In this document: positions 5,348-26,840 of the stretch, piece after piece | Layout: the number at the start of each line of letters is the position of its first letter | Numbering within the stretch: position 1 is the first letter of the stretch | Assembly: GCA_018814355.1 (NCBI GenBank) | Contig: JAHIZT010000033.1 | Coordinates: forward strand, 943 to 64,942 | From: Thermoplasmatota archaeon | GTDB lineage: Archaea > Thermoplasmatota > Thermoplasmata > UBA10834 | Direction of reading: 5' to 3' | DNA length: 64,000 nucleotides | Position numbers and translations under genes: made by a program | The notes under the pieces: model-generated | What the model was told of the DNA's origin: nothing | Databases searched by the model: none | The model's input: only the letters and a program-made list of their open reading frames with translations

Positions 5348-6532
5348 ATGCCAATCGAGCGCTTGCCCGCTGAGGTCGAGAAGGATGTGCACGCGTGCCT
5401 TCAGTGCGGGTACTGTAACTTCGTGTGCCCTATCCAGCTGAACCCAGACAGAGGCTGGGAGTCTTGGCGCGTGCGCGGGAAGATGTATCATCTGAAGAGA
5501 TACGCTCACCCGGGCACGTTCGGCAGGCTCACGGGCGATCGTCCGAGGATGACTCCGGAGTTCGTCGAGAGGATCTACAACTGCACTGCCTGCGGCTATT
5601 GCCAGCACGTCTGTCATGCGGGCATCAAGTTCAACGACCGCTGGGAGCAGGTCAAGGAGTGGTTCGTCAAGACGGGCGTTGGTCCTATGGACAGGCACAA
5701 GGCCTTGAGGACGAGGGTGATCGCGAAGCACAACCCGTACGACGAACCGCACGAGAACAGGGAGAGCTGGATCCCGAAGACGGCGAAGCGGTCGAAGAAC
5801 CCCGAGGTGCTGTATTTCACGGGCTGCACGGCGAGCTACAGGCAGCAGAAGATCGCTCAGGACGCCACGAGGGTACTAGACGCCGCCGGGATCGAGTACG
5901 ATATGCTGGGCAAGGACGAATGGTGTTGCGGGTCCCCTTTGATTAGGACGGGACAGACGGACATAGTCACAGACGAGAAGGACGGCCTCGTGAAGCACAA
6001 CCTGAGGGAGTTCGAGAAGAGGAACATCAGCACGGTCGTCACCGCGTGCGCCGGCTGCTTCATGACGCTCAAGCACAACTACCCCATCTATGCTGGCAAA
6101 CTCGATTTCAAGCTGTTCCATCTTACGCAGTTCATAGACCAGCTCATCTCCGACAAGAAGCTCGCGCTCAAGAAACCACTGCCGAAGAAGGTGGCGTATC
6201 ACGATCCTTGCCATATAGGCCGCCACCATGGAATATTCGAGGAGCCCAGGCGGATACTCAAGGCGTTCCCGAAGTCCAAGTACATGGAACTCCCGCACAA
6301 CAGGAACGACTCGCAATGCTGCGGCGCGGGCGGAGGTTTCAAGATTCAGTTCAACGACCGCGCGGAGTACATCGCGTCCCTTAGGGTCAAGGAGGCCCAC
6401 GATGTCGGTGCCGAGATGCTCGTCTCTGCGTGTCCGTTCTGCGTGACCAACCTTACGGGAGGGGCGAAGGTGTCCGGGCTCAAGATGGAGATCGCGGAGC
6501 TCGTCTCTCTCGTGGCAGATTCGGTGAGCTGA
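5348..6532 (+). CDS. Fe-S oxidoreductase, HdrD/GlpC/GlcF-like (two 4Fe-4S motifs and two CCG domains)
   Basis: CLQCGYCNFVCP, CTACGYCQHVC, YFTGC..WCCG..TACAGC and YHDPC..CCGAGGG..SACPFC. Confidence 0.88.
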   Translation: MPIERLPAEVEKDVHACLQCGYCNFVCPIQLNPDRGWESWRVRGKMYHLKRYAHPGTFGRLTGDRPRMTPEFVERIYNCTACGYCQHVCHAGIKFNDRWEQVKEWFVKTGVGPMDRHKALRTRVIAKHNPYDEPHENRESWIPKTAKRSKNPEVLYFTGCTASYRQQKIAQDATRVLDAAGIEYDMLGKDEWCCGSPLIRTGQTDIVTDEKDGLVKHNLREFEKRNISTVVTACAGCFMTLKHNYPIYAGKLDFKLFHLTQFIDQLISDKKLALKKPLPKKVAYHDPCHIGRHHGIFEEPRRILKAFPKSKYMELPHNRNDSQCCGAGGGFKIQFNDRAEYIASLRVKEAHDVGAEMLVSACPFCVTNLTGGAKVSGLKMEIAELVSLVADSVS

Positions 6533-10527: not shown

Positions 10528-10755
10528 CCCTCGGTAGAAACGACTCCGGGCTATTAGCGTTTGCGTCGGTGCACTCCCACCGAGCCAGTACCAGGCAAGA
10601 GACTCCAGAAACGCAATTCAGATATAGCCTTTTCACTATGCGCCTTTCTCAAGTCAGTACTCATCGTAGGAATGTTTTTAAACGGTCAATCCAATGTTGA
10701 ACTCTAATCCAGCTTAGCATGAGTACTCCCATAGTTGAAAGGGGTGTGCACTGAG

Positions 10756-11607
10756 ATGCCCAAGAAGAAGGATGTTGTCAAGGAAGAGCCGGTAGAGCCG
10801 GAGGTCGCCTGCCCAGTCTGCGGTAAGCCCGTTAGCATGGATGTGAACTCCTGTCCTCACTGTGGTGCAGAGTTCGAGGAGGAGGTCGAAGAGGTCGAGG
10901 CAGCTCCTGCCGAGGCGGCCGCAGTGGAAGATGAGGAGACCGCAGAGTGCCCGGTCTGTGGCAAGTCTGTGAGCCTCAACGTGTCCTCGTGCCCGTATTG
11001 CGGTGCGGAATTCGAGGAGGACGAGGTCGAAGAGGTCATCGAGGTCGAGGAGAGAGAGGTCCCCGTCAAGGCTACCCCGATGGCATCTCAGAGGCCAAAG
11101 AGGGCCCCCGAGAAGATCCCAATTGCGGAAGAGGAATACGTCGAGGACGAGGCAGCGGTCGGGGAGACCCACGCAGGAGAGCCAGTCCCCGCAAGCATAA
11201 CGGACTTCAGGGTCATCGGGGTCGCGCTCGTAATCCTGGGCATAATCGGATCTCAGATCGCGTTCATGATAGATTGGTACTGGTCGTGGGTCCCGCCAAT
11301 CAAGTCGCACCTGGGAACGTTCGTGGCAATACCCGCAATCATCATCGTCGTCGGTCTCCTTGTATTCATGCTGATCAAGAAGATGAGCACGGAGGGCAAG
11401 AGCTTCCCCAAGATGATGCCGGGAATGTCCCTTTCCTTGTTCATGTTCGGCATCATGGCCCTCATACTCGTGATGCTCTGGAGCCCGATCAACAACGCGC
11501 TCCAGGACTCCACGGTCGGGGTCGGAGGCGCCTTCGTTGCCATACTGGTCGTCGGTGTGCTCGTGATGTTCATGGGTCAGAAGATGGCTGCGAAGAACGC
11601 CGCCTGA
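10756..11607 (+). CDS. Double zinc-ribbon, highly acidic N-terminus plus about 4 TM membrane protein
   Basis: Two CPVCG-x8-CPxCGAEFEE units, Glu-rich linkers and hydrophobic C-terminal helices. ATG 10756 chosen as start. Confidence 0.8.
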   Translation: MPKKKDVVKEEPVEPEVACPVCGKPVSMDVNSCPHCGAEFEEEVEEVEAAPAEAAAVEDEETAECPVCGKSVSLNVSSCPYCGAEFEEDEVEEVIEVEEREVPVKATPMASQRPKRAPEKIPIAEEEYVEDEAAVGETHAGEPVPASITDFRVIGVALVILGIIGSQIAFMIDWYWSWVPPIKSHLGTFVAIPAIIIVVGLLVFMLIKKMSTEGKSFPKMMPGMSLSLFMFGIMALILVMLWSPINNALQDSTVGVGGAFVAILVVGVLVMFMGQKMAAKNAA

Positions 11608-11620
11608 TGTCGCCCGCAAA

Positions 11621-11769
11621 CCGTTCCATGAAACTTACCCACCTATCCCATGAGGGATGGCGGCGTTCACTTCCTGCTTCATCGATCCGGCTCGCGGCGC
11701 TCTCGCGGGCGCCGTGGAGGTCAGGTCTCCACAGGCGTTTAGAGTCTCCGTGGAACTCACGGCGACTAG
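11621..11769 (-). ncRNA. Putative stand-alone TnpB omega-RNA (reRNA) scaffold
   Basis: Ungapped 149-nt match to 26611-26759 with 17 mismatches by hand count (about 89%); stems and a GNRA loop are conserved. Confidence 0.72.
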
Positions 11770-11906
11770 GATTAGCGATGTGGCCTCCAGAGCGGAAACG
11801 CCAATAGGCCGTCTTGTAGTCTATCCACGTCTCCCGGGCCCAATGCGCCAATCCCACAGCCACTCACGACCCTTCATGGTATTGAAATCGTCTACTGCAT
11901 GTAGCC
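11621..11906 (-). mobile_element. 286-bp non-autonomous IS607-derived miniature element (left end, tnpA stub and right end; tnpB deleted)
   Basis: The reverse complement begins GGCTACATGCAGTAGACGATTTCAATACCATG (compare GGTTACATGCAGTTGACGGTTTCAATACCATG at 25395) and ends GGGTAAGTTTCATGGAACGG (compare 26740-26759). Confidence 0.88.
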
Positions 11907-12182
11907 TTTGTGAAACCCATTCCTCCATTCTATCTCGTTGTGCATTCGATACTTTCTTTGACATTTTCAATTACTGTCGTGATTGGCTCCAAGTCTTACG
12001 GACTTGGAGACTAATGCTCTCGTTTTCTGGCCAGCGCGCGCGCGAGGTCCGGACCAAATAATTATATACTATTATCCCGATATATTGAAAGCGAAAGCCG
12101 AAGGGATGGGGCAGCTCAAGCAGTGCGTTCCACGCACAGCGCAATCCACCTCTTCTGCAAAGCAAAAAAGGAGTGAAGCAGG

Positions 12183-13033: not shown

Positions 13034-15724
13034 GTGCCGAAGCGATGCTCTACCAGAGGAAGGATCGTGCCCAGAAGTAGCCATGACCAGCGAGACAGAG
13101 AGGACTCTGTACTCAGACCCAGAGGCTTCACTAGAGGCCTTCGCTTCTGGTCACATGATTCTCGGAGCGGCAAGGTCAATGGACTTGGAGGGCAGCAGAT
13201 CTGCTCTGAAAAGGGCGCCACAAACGGTCGCACAAATGGCCGCACCAACGGCCGTACGAATGGGCGTACCAACGGACGTACAAACGGCCGGACAAACGGG
13301 CGCACCAATGGCCGTACAAATGGCCGGACGAACGGCCGTACGAATGGACGTACCAATGGACGTACAAACGGCCGGACGAACGGCCGCACGAATGGACGTA
13401 CCAATGGACGTACAAACGGGAGGACGAACGGACGAACCAATGGGCGCACCAACGGTCGGACCAACGGAAGGACAAATGGCATGCTCTACGGTGCCATCAA
13501 CGGCATCACTCGGGGCCTCACCAACGGCGACTCGAACGGCTCAACTGGCATCACAAACGGGTTCGTGAACGGTTCGGGAGCCGTCAACGGTTTCCGCCTG
13601 TCCTATGAGCAGAGACGGGTCGGGGCCGTCAGGGTGGATTTCCGAAAGCGGCTTCTGATCATCGCGGTCCTGGTGACAATCATAGTTGCGATTCCTTATG
13701 CCTTGGTTTACGCATTCCCTAAGCAGACAGTCGAGATCGACGGCTACTTCATGGACTGGGTGAAGGCCCAGATCTTCAGAGACACTCCAGATTCCACCAA
13801 TCCGGACATATCTCTCACTGGCTACGGTGCGAAGTCGGACGTCCGCGGGAGTTACTTCTACATAAGGACTGAGGGTACGATCTTCAACGGCAGAGACAAC
13901 GGAGTCGATGCGTTCTACATATTCATCGACAGGGACAACAAGCCATCGAGTGGGTACTCCGTCCGAGGGCTCGGAGCCGACATTCTCGTGATGGTAATGG
14001 GTTGGAACAGGACCATGACGATGGCCGATACATACGTGTTCGACCCGGACGCGAGCAGGCTGGACTTCTCAGGGTTCCAGATCGTATCCGGGGCCCAGGC
14101 TGCCAGCTCGAGAGGCGAGCTGGAAATCGCCAGCTCGATGCAGATAAGCGAGAAGTCAAGAATGGCCATCTGTGCCTCGCATACCAACCTGACGTCGGAC
14201 TGGTCCGACGTGAACTTCCGCACGAGGGGCTCCGCTCTTCAGGTGACGGAGCTCCACAACGCCCCAGCCGTGCTCGCCACCTCTTCTGATCAGCACATCC
14301 TCACCTTGAAGATGTCGAGCAAGGGACCGGTCTCCTACATCGATGAGCTTCGCTTCGACATGCTGGGGAACGTCACCCCTCTGGAGATCGTCGCGAGCGA
14401 AGGACCCCAGATACTCGGCACAAGCCAGAGCGGAGTCTTGCCGTTCCAGCCATCGCTCAGGGTCGAGGGACAGGAGCGCAGCATTGACATAACCGCCATT
14501 CTGCCCGCAGGGCATCTGAGTGGCTCGTTCGGTCTTCAGCTCAACAGGACAATCGGGCTTGGTGTTGACAGCAACGTCACCTGGGTCCTCGACTCCGTTC
14601 AGGATGGGGCGAAGGTTGCATATGTTGGCGTTGCCCCAGCCAGGATTGTCATCGACGGCGCGTTCGGCGACTGGGCGCTTCGAGCATCTATACAGGACCT
14701 GATCGGGGACGCGTATTCAGAGAAGATGAAAGACAATCGGTCTGGTGACGTGGATATAACAACGGTGAAGCTCGCGTCCACGGATGATGTGGCATCCTTC
14801 TACATGGCCGTAAATGGAACAATGCTGGGAGGCTCCAGCGTTCCCTCCAGCCTCGTAAGATGGGTGCACCCTGGGGCGCCCGCAGAGAACGTCACGAACA
14901 TATCGGAGTCGATGTATGGCGCTGACTTTGCATTCGTGTTCATCGACACCGACGGGAACCAGGATACGGGTTATGACATCGGCGGATCCGAGATCTCACT
15001 GGCGGTCGTCGGCAAGGGCAACAGCATCCTCTCGAGCAGGGTCTTCACGTATGTCTCCGGCGGTTGGAACGACTCTGGCCCCATCGATGCTGCCATAGAC
15101 GAGTTCCAGTTGGAGATCAGCGGCCAGTACTCTTCGCTAGGCCTGATCTCCGGTAGGACTTACACTGTGACCTTCGTCGCTCAGGACTGGAGCGGTCGGA
15201 AAGACGACATCGGCGTCGCGCTCCCTGCCAGGACTTCGGCAGGGACAAGGGCGTATCCGGGCATAGTGATCAATGAGGTGTATAACAAGCCCCCGCCGAA
15301 CACCCCCAACGATTGGATCGAGCTGTACAACACGGGCACCACGCCGGTCGACATAGGGGGGTGGCGGCTGTATGTCGACGGCGTGCTCGTGTTCACTTTC
15401 CCCTCTGTCACGATCCAGCCAGGGGCGTTCTACCTCTCCCCGGGCATCGATTTCGGCAAGGCGATCAACTTCATACTGACCGACGCTTCGAGTTCCACCG
15501 TGGACCAGGTCTCCATCCCTTTCTGGCAGGAGAAATCCCACGGCAGGATTGGCAGTCCACCGTATTCGACCTGGGCTGATATGACTCCCACTCCTGGCGC
15601 GATCAACCAGGGTCAGACGCCTATACCCGAGTTCAGCAGCGTCCTGATTCCGGCGGCGATAGTACCAATTATCCTTATGGTCATTCGCCGTTCAGGAAGA
15701 GCGAAGGGAGCGACAGAGGAGTAG
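13034..15724 (+). CDS. Large cell-surface protein: TNGR repeat tract, TM helix, two IDGxFxDW beta domains, lamin-tail-like domain, PEF-CTERM tail (N-terminus uncertain)
   Basis: RKRLLIIAVLVTIIVAIPYALV TM; IDGYFMDW and IDGAFGDW; IVINEV..DWIELYN..VDIGGWRL; PIPEFSSVLIPAAIVPIILMVIRRSGR. Confidence 0.82.
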   Translation: MPKRCSTRGRIVPRSSHDQRDREDSVLRPRGFTRGLRFWSHDSRSGKVNGLGGQQICSEKGATNGRTNGRTNGRTNGRTNGRTNGRTNGRTNGRTNGRTNGRTNGRTNGRTNGRTNGRTNGRTNGRTNGRTNGRTNGRTNGRTNGRTNGMLYGAINGITRGLTNGDSNGSTGITNGFVNGSGAVNGFRLSYEQRRVGAVRVDFRKRLLIIAVLVTIIVAIPYALVYAFPKQTVEIDGYFMDWVKAQIFRDTPDSTNPDISLTGYGAKSDVRGSYFYIRTEGTIFNGRDNGVDAFYIFIDRDNKPSSGYSVRGLGADILVMVMGWNRTMTMADTYVFDPDASRLDFSGFQIVSGAQAASSRGELEIASSMQISEKSRMAICASHTNLTSDWSDVNFRTRGSALQVTELHNAPAVLATSSDQHILTLKMSSKGPVSYIDELRFDMLGNVTPLEIVASEGPQILGTSQSGVLPFQPSLRVEGQERSIDITAILPAGHLSGSFGLQLNRTIGLGVDSNVTWVLDSVQDGAKVAYVGVAPARIVIDGAFGDWALRASIQDLIGDAYSEKMKDNRSGDVDITTVKLASTDDVASFYMAVNGTMLGGSSVPSSLVRWVHPGAPAENVTNISESMYGADFAFVFIDTDGNQDTGYDIGGSEISLAVVGKGNSILSSRVFTYVSGGWNDSGPIDAAIDEFQLEISGQYSSLGLISGRTYTVTFVAQDWSGRKDDIGVALPARTSAGTRAYPGIVINEVYNKPPPNTPNDWIELYNTGTTPVDIGGWRLYVDGVLVFTFPSVTIQPGAFYLSPGIDFGKAINFILTDASSSTVDQVSIPFWQEKSHGRIGSPPYSTWADMTPTPGAINQGQTPIPEFSSVLIPAAIVPIILMVIRRSGRAKGATEE
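13220..13480 (+). repeat. Coding 12-bp tandem repeat encoding (TNGR)21-TNG
   Basis: 87 codons; amino acids invariant while synonymous positions vary. Confidence 0.95.
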
Positions 15725-25355: not shown

Positions 25356-25457
25356 GGCAGCGCAGGAATCCTAGTACCTGGATATAATCTGTAGGGTTAC
25401 ATGCAGTTGACGGTTTCAATACCATGTGGGGCCATGAACAGACGTGAGTCTAGTAGA

Positions 25458-25514
25458 TGGTGTTCGGAGACAGGAGTAGACTGCAGGACTACATAATGGT
25501 GGTTCCGCTCTGGA
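25458..25514 (+). pseudogene. tnpA: Remnant of the IS607 serine-recombinase TnpA N-terminal HTH
   Basis: Reads WCSETGVDCRTT*WWFRSG. The copy at 11786-11842 (-) reads WARETWIDYKTAYWRFRSG, which resembles the IS607 TnpA start as I recall it (W..x.GI.Y.TAWRWF..G). Confidence 0.6.
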
Positions 25515-25524
25515 GGAACGACTC

Positions 25525-26745
25525 ATGAGAATCAGTCGTGCGCATCGATTCGAGTTGAAGCCCAACGATGTCCAGCGGACTCACTTCGCCAAGTGCGCGG
25601 GCGTTGCACGGTTCGCGTGGAACTGGGCGCTAGACGAGCGCCAGCGGCTCTTTCGTGAAAGGAAAGGTGACGAGCGGTTCACCAATGCCATCGAGCAGCA
25701 CCGCCGGCTCAATGTTCTCAAGAAGACGGACTTCCCGTGGATGTACGAAGTTTCGAAGTGCATCCCTCAGGAAGCCCTCCGCAACCTCGACAACGCCTAC
25801 GGGCTCTGCCGGATGGCAAAGAAAGCTGGCCGGAAGGCTCGGCTTCCGAAGTTCAAGAAGAAGGGCAGGGCGCGTGATGCCTTTGCCTTCACAACAGGCG
25901 CCATACGTGCAGAAGGCACCCACGTTGTCCTTCCCCGCATGGGACGCGTTCGGATCAAGGAGCCCACAGTCCTTGACGGACGAATCCTACGGGCGACTGT
26001 CACACGCGATGCCGACCGGTGGTTCGTCTCATTCACGGTCGAGCAGGAGGTTCCAGACCCCCAGCCGCCAGCGGGTTCTGCGGTGGGTGTGGACCTCGGC
26101 GTGTCCCGCTTGGCCACGCTCTCCGACGGATGCGTTTTCGAGAACCCCAAGCCTCTGCAGTCCCGCCTGCGGAAGCTCCGCGGGCTCGCGAAGGAACTTC
26201 ACAGGAGGAACAAAGGAAGCAACAATCGAAAGAAATCAGCAGACAGACTGGCGAAGGCATACTGGCGCATCGGGAACATCCGCAGGGACGCCCTGCACAA
26301 GGCGACGACTCATCTCGCCAAGAACCACGGCGAGATCATCATCGAAGGCCTCAACGTGCAGGGCATGGCAGGGAGCCGCTACCTGGCGCGCGCCATCTCG
26401 GATGTTGGCTTTGGAGAGTTCCGCCGGCAGCTCGAGTACAAGTGTCGCTGGTACGGGAGCCGTTTGACTGTGGCACCAAGGTTCTACCCGTCAACAAAGC
26501 GATGCTCCTTGTGTGGCCACATCAAGAAAGAGATGCCCTTGTCTGAGAGGACTTACAAGTGCGAGAGCTGCGGGCTGGTCCTCGATAGAGACCTGAACGC
26601 AGCGCTCAATCTGGTCGCCGTGAGTTCCACGGAGACCTTAAACGCCTGTGGAGACCTGGCCTCCACGGTGCCCGCAAGGGTGCTGCGAGCCGGGCCGTTG
26701 AAGCAGGAAATGAACGCCGCTATCCTGCATGGGATAGGTGGGTAA
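25525..26745 (+). CDS. tnpB: RNA-guided endonuclease TnpB, RuvC triad intact
   Basis: HTH start; GVDLG (D), IIIEGL (E), CSLCG..CESCG zinc finger, DRDLNAALN (D). Confidence 0.95.
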   Translation: MRISRAHRFELKPNDVQRTHFAKCAGVARFAWNWALDERQRLFRERKGDERFTNAIEQHRRLNVLKKTDFPWMYEVSKCIPQEALRNLDNAYGLCRMAKKAGRKARLPKFKKKGRARDAFAFTTGAIRAEGTHVVLPRMGRVRIKEPTVLDGRILRATVTRDADRWFVSFTVEQEVPDPQPPAGSAVGVDLGVSRLATLSDGCVFENPKPLQSRLRKLRGLAKELHRRNKGSNNRKKSADRLAKAYWRIGNIRRDALHKATTHLAKNHGEIIIEGLNVQGMAGSRYLARAISDVGFGEFRRQLEYKCRWYGSRLTVAPRFYPSTKRCSLCGHIKKEMPLSERTYKCESCGLVLDRDLNAALNLVAVSSTETLNACGDLASTVPARVLRAGPLKQEMNAAILHGIGG

Positions 26746-26759
26746 GTTTCGTGGAACGG
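26611..26759 (+). ncRNA. Cis omega-RNA scaffold overlapping the tnpB 3' end; guide would start at 26760 (AUGUACAAUGACGACUCC...)
   Basis: GTTCCACGGA pairs with TTCGTGGAAC; GCAA-capped and GCAT-capped hairpins; the same block is conserved in the second copy. Confidence 0.78.
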
Positions 26760-26840
26760 ATGTACAATGACGACTCCTAGATTGATATGCTACCAACCCT
26801 TATTCGTCTTCCAGAGCGCGCAGCTCAGTGGTGGAACTGA

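Follow-up and report, generated by a model that had tools for sequence, protein, structure and literature searches.

We found that a 286-bp segment of the window (the whole stretch of 64,000 nt of Thermoplasmatota DNA analyzed here) is a protein-less, non-autonomous deletion derivative of a Thermoplasmata IS607-family element. This segment, which we call the mini element, is a true mobile insertion, and the 3' block that it retains coincides with the structured omega-RNA scaffold of the family. We regard its homology, derivation, boundaries, mobility and insertion polymorphism as established, along with the conservation of the RNA structure and the presence of an intact-looking TnpB. Judging from the sequences compared, we lean with modest confidence toward the view that the mini element is a mobile IS607 derivative whose guide RNA serves the TnpB of a sister element in trans.

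A miniature derivative of a TnpB element

Compared with the window by BLAST, the mini region had only two matches, both to a larger element at 25395-26759 (the full element; Table 1). One match (11621-11780 to 26600-26759) covers 160 nt at 86.9% identity with no gaps. The other (11784-11906 to 25395-25516) covers 123 nt at 70.7% identity with one gap. Approximately 1,080 nt of the full element, essentially the whole of tnpB, are missing from the mini element. The initial annotation had described the 286 bp as the TnpB element of 25395-26759 without its protein gene, with the last 149 nt ~89% identical and ungapped. Our comparisons agree on both points: left and right ends are matched and tnpB is gone, and 132/149 positions (88.6%) are identical. 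A covariance model of the scaffold likewise detected only two scaffolds in the 64 kb, one in each element.

The boundaries are sharp. Homology with 30 other loci ends exactly at 11621 and at 11904-11906, and for the full element at 25394/5 and 26759. The mini element has the same break points in syntenic contigs with an empty site (see below).

Table 1. Coordinates and main characteristics of the mini element and of the full element in the window.
Feature	Position	Strand	Remarks
Whole miniature element	11621..11906	-	286 bp; flanks ...CACAAA and TTTGCGG...
Left end of mini element	11864..11906	-	conserved TACATGCAG at 11895-11903; AT-rich box TTTCAATA at 11880-11887
tnpA stub of mini element, 27 codons, (M)AVGLAHWARETWIDYKTAYWRFRSGG	11783..11863	-	ends at deletion junction CTGGAGG/CC/ACATCGCT
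Omega-RNA (reRNA) scaffold of mini element, 163 nt	11621..11783	-	ends ...GGAACGG, the element boundary
RAGATH-18-like core in mini scaffold, CCUGUGGAG...CGAUGAAGCAGGAA	11671..11735	-	Rfam RF03064, sub-threshold
Predicted 20-nt guide of mini element, UUUGCGGGCGACAUCAGGCG	11601..11620	-	flank DNA; predicted from sequence
TnpB-only IS607 derivative (full element)	25395..26759	+	left end and decayed tnpA stub at 25395-25524; tnpB; scaffold; guide
tnpB, 406 aa	25525-26745	+	Pfam HTH_OrfB_IS605, OrfB_IS605, Cas12f1-like_TNB
Scaffold of full element	26597-26759	+	covariance model
Own guide of full element	26760-26779	+	follows scaffold

The left part of the mini element is the remnant of a transposase gene. 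Nineteen of the codons in the tnpA stub are identical to the N-terminus of TnpA of the complete element at locus L002 (MGVKLADWARETGIDYKTAYRWFRAGI). The stub length given initially, 19 codons, is too short; the stub has 27 codons. The stub is non-coding, because a stop codon interrupts it at loci L005 and L028. Upstream of it, the box TTTCAATA is TTTYAATA-like in ~15 left ends and lies ~20 nt upstream of the former tnpA start. From its sequence, this box is promoter-like and may be an archaeal TATA box for a nearly leaderless tnpA; it may equally be a transposase site. Scans for sigma-70 promoters and terminators around the mini element gave no matches; sigma-70 models are unsuited to archaea.

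A 12-nt imperfect inverted motif centered on CATG is found near both ends, as ATACCATGAAGG in the left end (11871-11882) and as ATCCCATGAGGG, inverted, in the right end (11645-11656). In the right end, this motif forms the terminal hairpin of the scaffold. We consider this subterminal motif a candidate TnpA-binding motif.

The parent family and its TnpB

Family loci were retrieved by an exact pattern within the scaffold, with 2 loci recovered from species-representative genomes and 27 from metagenomes; mini elements that lack a scaffold could therefore not be found. A scan of viral contigs with a right-end pattern gave 0 matches.

The TnpB encoded in the window has the RuvC residues D190, E274 and D356 and two CxxC pairs of zinc-finger cysteines. 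This is in keeping with the initial report of a TnpB near the mini element, as the gene is apparently intact and 13.5 kb away. Among natural proteins of solved structure, a PDB sequence search placed ISDra2 TnpB closest (E 2e-59). The top NCBIfam match is IS607_TnpB, at 315.7 bits with a cutoff of 350, and the generic guided_TnpB model scores 295.5 with a cutoff of 100. Close homologues are 72-98% identical and come from Thermoplasmata or Thermoplasmatota MAGs and from sediment metagenomes.

L002 is a complete element. A 191-aa serine recombinase (Pfam Resolvase) is encoded directly upstream of tnpB, overlapping it, and scores 205.8 bits against the NCBIfam IS607 family transposase model (cutoff 110). 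The autonomous copy of the family thus has the serine-recombinase TnpA with an N-terminal HTH that is characteristic of IS607, and the mini stub aligns to its first 27 residues. Only L002, 1 of ~17 family copies, has retained tnpA, and there is no tnpA in the 64-kb window. Therefore, movement of TnpB-only elements in trans is the norm in this family, and the nuclease-only form has spread far more than the autonomous form.

At least eleven TnpB-only copies at different sites, including the full element in the window, have one ancestral internal tnpA deletion in common. At its junction, ...TTCCGCYCTGGAGG is followed by the last few bases of tnpA (loci listed with the junction CTGGAGG: L001, L003, L010, L012, L014, L016-L018, L021, L026 and L030). 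This shared deletion is accounted for by GCTGGA repeats, which L002 has at codon 26 of tnpA and again at the 3' end of the gene. The mini element has the same tnpA stub followed by GGAGGCC, and is best explained as the product of a second deletion in a TnpB-only element.

Three family members (L004, L019 and L022), whose TnpBs are 77-79% identical to that of the window, have a common right flank, TAAGGCTTTATA[A/G]CAGTGCC. This indicates an old insertion that was vertically inherited across diverged genomes, unlike the recent polymorphic insertions.

The mini element is a mobile insertion

We compared the occupied site with empty sites in related genomes. Homologues of the zinc-ribbon gene that adjoins the mini element led to six contigs without the element, in which the order of the window is preserved over kilobases to either side (82-95% identity). 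Homology to these contigs stops at ~11621-11625 and restarts at 11905. In the orientation of the element, the empty site is CACAAA-GGG-TTTGCGGGCG and the occupied site is CACAAA-GG...GG-TTTGCGGGCG. The net gain is 283 bp, with no target duplication, so the left boundary of the element may be 11905. A GG had been expected at the empty site from its initial reconstruction; the real site, in all six syntenic contigs, has GGG. Both the mobility of the mini element and its natural target allele go beyond what had been claimed for this DNA.

All right ends in the family finish in GG, and left ends start with GG, rarely with AG or GA. The GG core and the scarless empty site without duplication are as in IS607 elements. 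The insertion fits integration by a serine recombinase at the GG beside TTTG, with the register ambiguous by 1 nt in the G run. Integration at this GG would make the left junction GC instead of GG, and an IS607 donor that had a non-GG dinucleotide is reported to behave in this way (PMC10690162).

The same mini element is present elsewhere. Loci L006, L008 and L020 contain it (99.3% identity over 286 nt) between the flanks ...GGATGGAG and AACACAAATG..., and L005 and L028 contain it (90.5% identity) with a third pair of flanks. The internal junction, CTGGAGGCCACATCGCT, is identical at the three sites and the flanks are unrelated, so the deletion preceded transposition. The mini type is rare, with these three sites and one homologue of a spurious 97-aa ORF among 5.8 billion proteins. 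The MAG that holds L005 contained no pattern-matching tnpB element. Locus L025 is an independently derived mini element, in which 72 nt of left end are joined to ~187 nt of right end via CGGGCT microhomology. Across the close family there are ~24 different right-end flanks.

Two further loci deserve mention. At L024 (484-628, minus strand), a diverged scaffold (108.8 bits) lies between two unrelated genes, without tnpB. It belongs to a sister family (L027-like, TnpB ~59% identical) and has an 18-nt deletion of one helix. A left-end-like sequence, GTAACATCTTGCAG, lies in the ~200 nt upstream. L024 is possibly a member of a second family of guide-only mini elements, and the third independent one. 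At L006 (~6300-6320), 7 nt separate the end of the mini element from the ATG of a downstream ORF (AACACAA ATG ACC TAC...), and read-through from the mini element would enter this ORF in sense.

The retained right end is a structured RNA scaffold

We aligned 28 distinct right ends of the family, almost without gaps, and found six helices (RNAalifold). Standard pairs accounted for 97.0% of cells, compared to 34-51% in a control in which the partners were slid. Ten pairs changed on both sides, compared to 3.8 +/- 1.4 in shuffles (0/500 shuffles reached 10); as the structure itself came from this set of related sequences, the controls are only partly independent. The invariance of columns 31-55 reflects their use as the search pattern.

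The scaffold contains a core that resembles RAGATH-18, which biochemistry and cryo-EM have identified as the guide-RNA core of IS607 TnpBs (PMC11061315). In permissive Rfam searches, RF03064 matched the mini element over the full length of the model (25.2 bits, E 0.014) and matched the full element at the equivalent position (23.8 bits, E 0.027); the gathering score is 44.9 and the E-values are from small searches. Rfam at gathering thresholds gave no matches in the whole window. The core in the mini element is best described as RAGATH-18-like, not as a curated member of RF03064.

The scaffold is also visible as a change in how the sequence varies. In 20 full-length elements, the three-periodic variation of tnpB ends ~150 nt from the right end, at the 5' edge of the scaffold. 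The invariant run that replaces it starts 14 nt upstream of the search pattern, and within the scaffold block the variability of third positions is similar to that of first and second positions. The block starts just after the RuvC-III motif (~codon 358-363), so the deletion in the mini element removed every catalytic part of TnpB. In ~24 differently flanked copies of the close family, the scaffold ends ...GGAACGG at the element boundary; the omega-RNA of CboIStron ends ...UCGG (PMC10690162), and the end here is ...ACGG. The initial proposal that the retained block is the omega-RNA scaffold is thus borne out by covariation, by the RAGATH-18-like core and by codon periodicity that ends at the 5' edge.

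In the mini element, constraint at the RNA level starts at ~11767. The deletion stops 13-16 nt before the constrained RNA, and that in L025 ~40 nt before it. The IS607 TnpA studied so far needs only ~60 bp of the right end (PMC10690162). Compared to that need, the 160-190 nt of right end kept in independent mini elements point to the RNA, in a set that is biased toward scaffold-bearing mini elements.

Two tertiary or alternative pairings were considered. A short pseudoknot is possible, as GUUC at columns 28-31 is complementary to GAAC at 161-164 in 28/28 sequences; both segments are invariant. A 10-bp duplex, GTTCCACGGA/TTC(G/A)TGGAAC, had initially been described as kept. Covariation contradicts this and favors another helix. 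The A or G at column 158 forms a pair with U/C118 in 28/28 sequences and co-varies with it, and mismatches C34 in 16/28, including the mini element. We rejected the duplex GTTCCACGGA/TTCRTGGAAC, which has this C.A mismatch and no covariation, in preference for the helix 117-125/148-159.

The predicted guide has a natural target

The mini scaffold abuts a new flank that would serve as its guide, in line with the second guide proposed in the initial annotation; the guide is predicted to be UUUGCGGGCGACAUCAGGCG. The predicted guide (11620-11601) is unique in the window. It is antisense to the end of the zinc-ribbon gene (10735-11607), where it covers the stop codon and the final 4 coding nucleotides. 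One of the empty-site contigs, L035, contains a perfect target, with a 20/20 match to the guide directly after AAAGGG. Because this target has AGGG, a natural homing substrate exists in sister populations. A poor TAM (AAGG) at the target of the mini element had been a possibility and is ruled out by the AGGG of the real empty site.

Left-end flanks throughout the family have a purine-rich, RGGG-like motif. It resembles TGGG, reported for CboTnpB (PMC10690162), and GAGGG, reported for some RAGATH-18 TnpBs (PMC11061315). The scaffold's own ACGG differs from the target motif at position -3, and the same difference in Cbo prevents self-cleavage (PMC10690162).

A model for a guide-only mobile element

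The reading that we favor can be laid out as a series of steps. A complete tnpA-tnpB element would have lost most of tnpA by deletion between GCTGGA microrepeats, giving a TnpB-only form. A second deletion would have taken tnpB up to ~codon 358, leaving the left end, the 27-codon stub and the 163-nt right end. The mini element would then have been moved in trans by a serine-recombinase TnpA encoded elsewhere, and would have integrated at GG just 3' of the zinc-ribbon gene. There it may be transcribed, and the promoter could be the one in the left end that once served tnpA. The scaffold and the adjacent flank would together form a guide RNA, bound in trans by the TnpB of a sister element. Cleavage by the TnpB complex would fall on the allele that lacks the insertion (AAAGGG and then TTTGCGGGCGACATCAGGCG), and recombinational repair would restore or spread the mini element, with the same homing and retention logic as shown for IS605 and IS607 TnpB. 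Transcription of the mini element, processing of its RNA, loading into TnpB, cleavage and any effect on fitness are inferred.

If TnpB does use the mini RNA in trans, then this would be a natural archaeal IS607 case of one nuclease with several dispersed guides, and of a transposon reduced to its ends and a guide. It would correspond to the modular intermediate that has been imagined on the path from transposon-borne TnpB to multi-guide CRISPR-Cas12, and would extend the homing model to elements that do not encode their own nuclease. If the RNA is not used, the mini element is simply a small non-autonomous IS derivative of an ordinary kind that escapes annotation pipelines. The locus is unusually testable, since an occupied allele, an empty allele with a perfect target and a TAM-like motif, a candidate nuclease and the sequence of a family transposase are all known.

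More tentatively, we suggest a three-tier parasitic chain in the IS607 elements of Thermoplasmata. Rare tnpA-tnpB elements would provide the transposase, abundant TnpB-only elements the nuclease, and mini elements only an omega-RNA. Selection might trim mini elements exactly to the 5' edge of the scaffold because TnpB homing in trans retains them, and the empty allele of the sister population would be a natural drive target.

Alternative explanations

The best-surviving alternative is that the mini element is an inert, MITE-like hitch-hiker. Its scaffold would have been kept because of a chance deletion end, or because TnpA needs a long right end, and would be slowly decaying without being expressed or used. 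We find this somewhat doubtful, and the state of the mini scaffold bears on it in both directions. In the structured block, the mini and full copies have 17 differences. Two of these together convert pair 17/41 from G-C to A-U, a compensated change seen only in this mini lineage. Six are one-sided and wobble-compatible, three created A.C mismatches in the mini element (columns 63, 86 and 101) and six are at unpaired positions. Six kept and three broken is about what random transitions would give, so the pairing argument adds little for the mini copy, and family-wide covariation carries the case. The statement in the initial annotation that many differences preserve pairing thus holds in part: the GCAA/GCGA loop and the U-G/C-G changes are real, but the overall ratio is no better than chance and there are the three A.C mismatches.

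Decay of an unused RNA would account for these mismatches and for the G-to-A bias. Most private changes of the mini element are G-to-A and resemble mutational drift, its 3 non-standard pairs of 45 are the most in the close family (others have 0-2), and its minimum-energy fold departs from the consensus and does not adopt the consensus core. Yet the single private double change restores pair 17/41, and the mini lineages at L005, L028 and L025 have only 0-1 mismatches. The covariance-model score of the mini scaffold (182.4 bits, E 2e-46) and its energy threaded on the consensus (-43.5 kcal/mol) are also within the range of scaffolds that lie beside an intact tnpB (L001, L019 and L022; 178-182 bits and -42.7 to -44.4 kcal/mol).

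The pattern of deletion and divergence is similarly divided. A requirement of TnpA for a long right end is at odds with the ~60 bp that suffice for the IS607 TnpA studied (PMC10690162), and the end points of two or three independent deletions lie close to the constrained block but outside it, in a search biased to scaffold-bearing mini elements. The low copy number of the mini element suits a hitch-hiker, as does the fact that mini lineages differ in the scaffold (at 11 positions of the 150-nt structured block) only modestly less than in the left end and stub (87.6% identity over 121 nt).

We consider it improbable that the locus has been domesticated or is coding, either as an antisense or TnpB-guided regulator of the zinc-ribbon gene or as the 97-aa ORF at 11570-11863. 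The antisense position of the predicted guide, across the stop and last codons of gene 10735-11607, would suit a regulator, but the element is missing from six close relatives with the same gene pair and is therefore not a conserved host feature. The TnpB of the window also keeps its catalytic residues, unlike nuclease-dead TldR regulators. The ORF runs from the tnpA start through the mini element; we rejected it as a gene, as it has no Pfam match and a single homologue, and a stop codon breaks its frame in L005 and L028.

That the mini element is a remnant formed in place, by local erosion of an inserted full element, and was never mobile, is extremely improbable: its deletion junctions do have the microhomology typical of replication slippage, but three genomic sites whose flanks are unrelated have exactly the same junction, CTGGAGGCCACATCGCT, in copies 99.3% and 90.5% identical to this one.

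One property of the mini scaffold and its flank stands apart from these explanations. Flank positions 11595-11604, just past the predicted guide, and scaffold positions 11659-11668 have a perfect 10-nt complementarity (GAACGCCGCC / GGCGGCGTTC). When scaffold and flank are folded together as a single sequence, this pairing is dominant. About 0.06 such matches are expected by chance in 350 nt, and the complementarity may be a coincidence.

Comparison with known systems

The closest concept is that of the PATE-like elements. Minimal IS200/IS605 PATE-like elements "often encode omega-RNAs" that need the TnpB of other IS copies in trans (Meers et al. 2023, PMC10055086), and there is an example from C. 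difficile (PMC10690162, fig. S3). Like the mini element, PATEs are protein-less, consist only of transposon ends and have the same functional logic. PATEs are bacterial IS200/IS605 elements with Y1 HUH "peel and paste" transposition, hairpin ends and a TTGAT-type TAM, whereas the mini element is an archaeal IS607 derivative with a serine recombinase, a GG core and no hairpin ends. The mini element is not a PATE, because it is without Y1 hairpin ends and its parent uses a serine recombinase, although it works like one. It is the same idea in a serine-recombinase family and in archaea; the guide-only concept was already proposed for IS605.

Within IS607, CboIStron has TnpB-only non-autonomous copies, and a synthetic mini-IS without both genes is excised by TnpA in trans (Zedaveinyte et al., PMC10690162). 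CboIStron and the family described here both have a serine TnpA, a GG core dinucleotide, scarless donor joints, a TAM ending in GGG and a scaffold ending ...CGG. CboIStron differs in having a group I intron and in that its mini-IS was engineered; the mini element is without an intron. Natural guide-only mini elements are not described for CboIStron in that report (PMC10690162), and in a literature search of incomplete coverage we found no paper on natural IS607 guide-only mini elements.

In the study of ISFba1-type IS607 TnpBs, 36% of RAGATH-18 RNAs were reported not to be adjacent to a TnpB gene (PMC11061315). There, as in the family of the mini element, the scaffold consists of a 5' flank, a RAGATH-18 core and a 3' flank, and the ISFba1-type TAMs are G-rich (AGGAG or GAGGG). 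The ISFba1-type scaffold is wholly outside the ORF, and these TnpBs are mostly from gut Firmicutes; here, in contrast, the scaffold overlaps the 3' end of tnpB, and its core scores only 25 bits (gathering score 44.9). Overlap of the omega-RNA with the 3' end of tnpB is also found in ISDra2 TnpB (PDB 8BF8, 8EXA, 8H1J), with a common tail motif, (S/T)(D/E)TLNA(C/H)G, in the overlap. Unlike the family described here, ISDra2 is an IS200/IS605 element with a Y1 transposase, a TTGAT TAM and no mini derivative.

Small archaeal elements mobilized in trans have a precedent. Sulfolobus SMN1 is a 320-bp non-autonomous element that depends on the transposase of ISC1733 (PMC3718332). SMN1 resembles the mini element in being archaeal, ~300 bp, without an ORF and mobilized in trans by an IS of the orfB-carrying group, and we take it as a lead only. 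Classical MITEs and the mini element have in common only small size, the absence of coding capacity and trans-mobilization. The mini element has no terminal inverted repeats, only the 12-nt subterminal imperfect motif, and no target-site duplication, and so does not have the defining features of a classical MITE.

Other features of the window

A tRNA scan of the window gave no matches. Between the mini element and the next gene, positions 11985-12011 form a perfect 9-bp intergenic hairpin, CTCCAAGTC-TTACG-GACTTGGAG, which is partly conserved in relatives and has no Rfam match and no T run after it. Further along, at 13220-13480, a 12-nt tandem repeat (AACGGCCGTACC-like) is present in ~20 copies and gives a (TNGR)n stretch close to the N-terminus of an 896-aa protein (13034-15724). 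In relatives, the orthologue of this protein has a lamin-tail domain. This repeat aligns with relatives in several registers and is probably length-variable.
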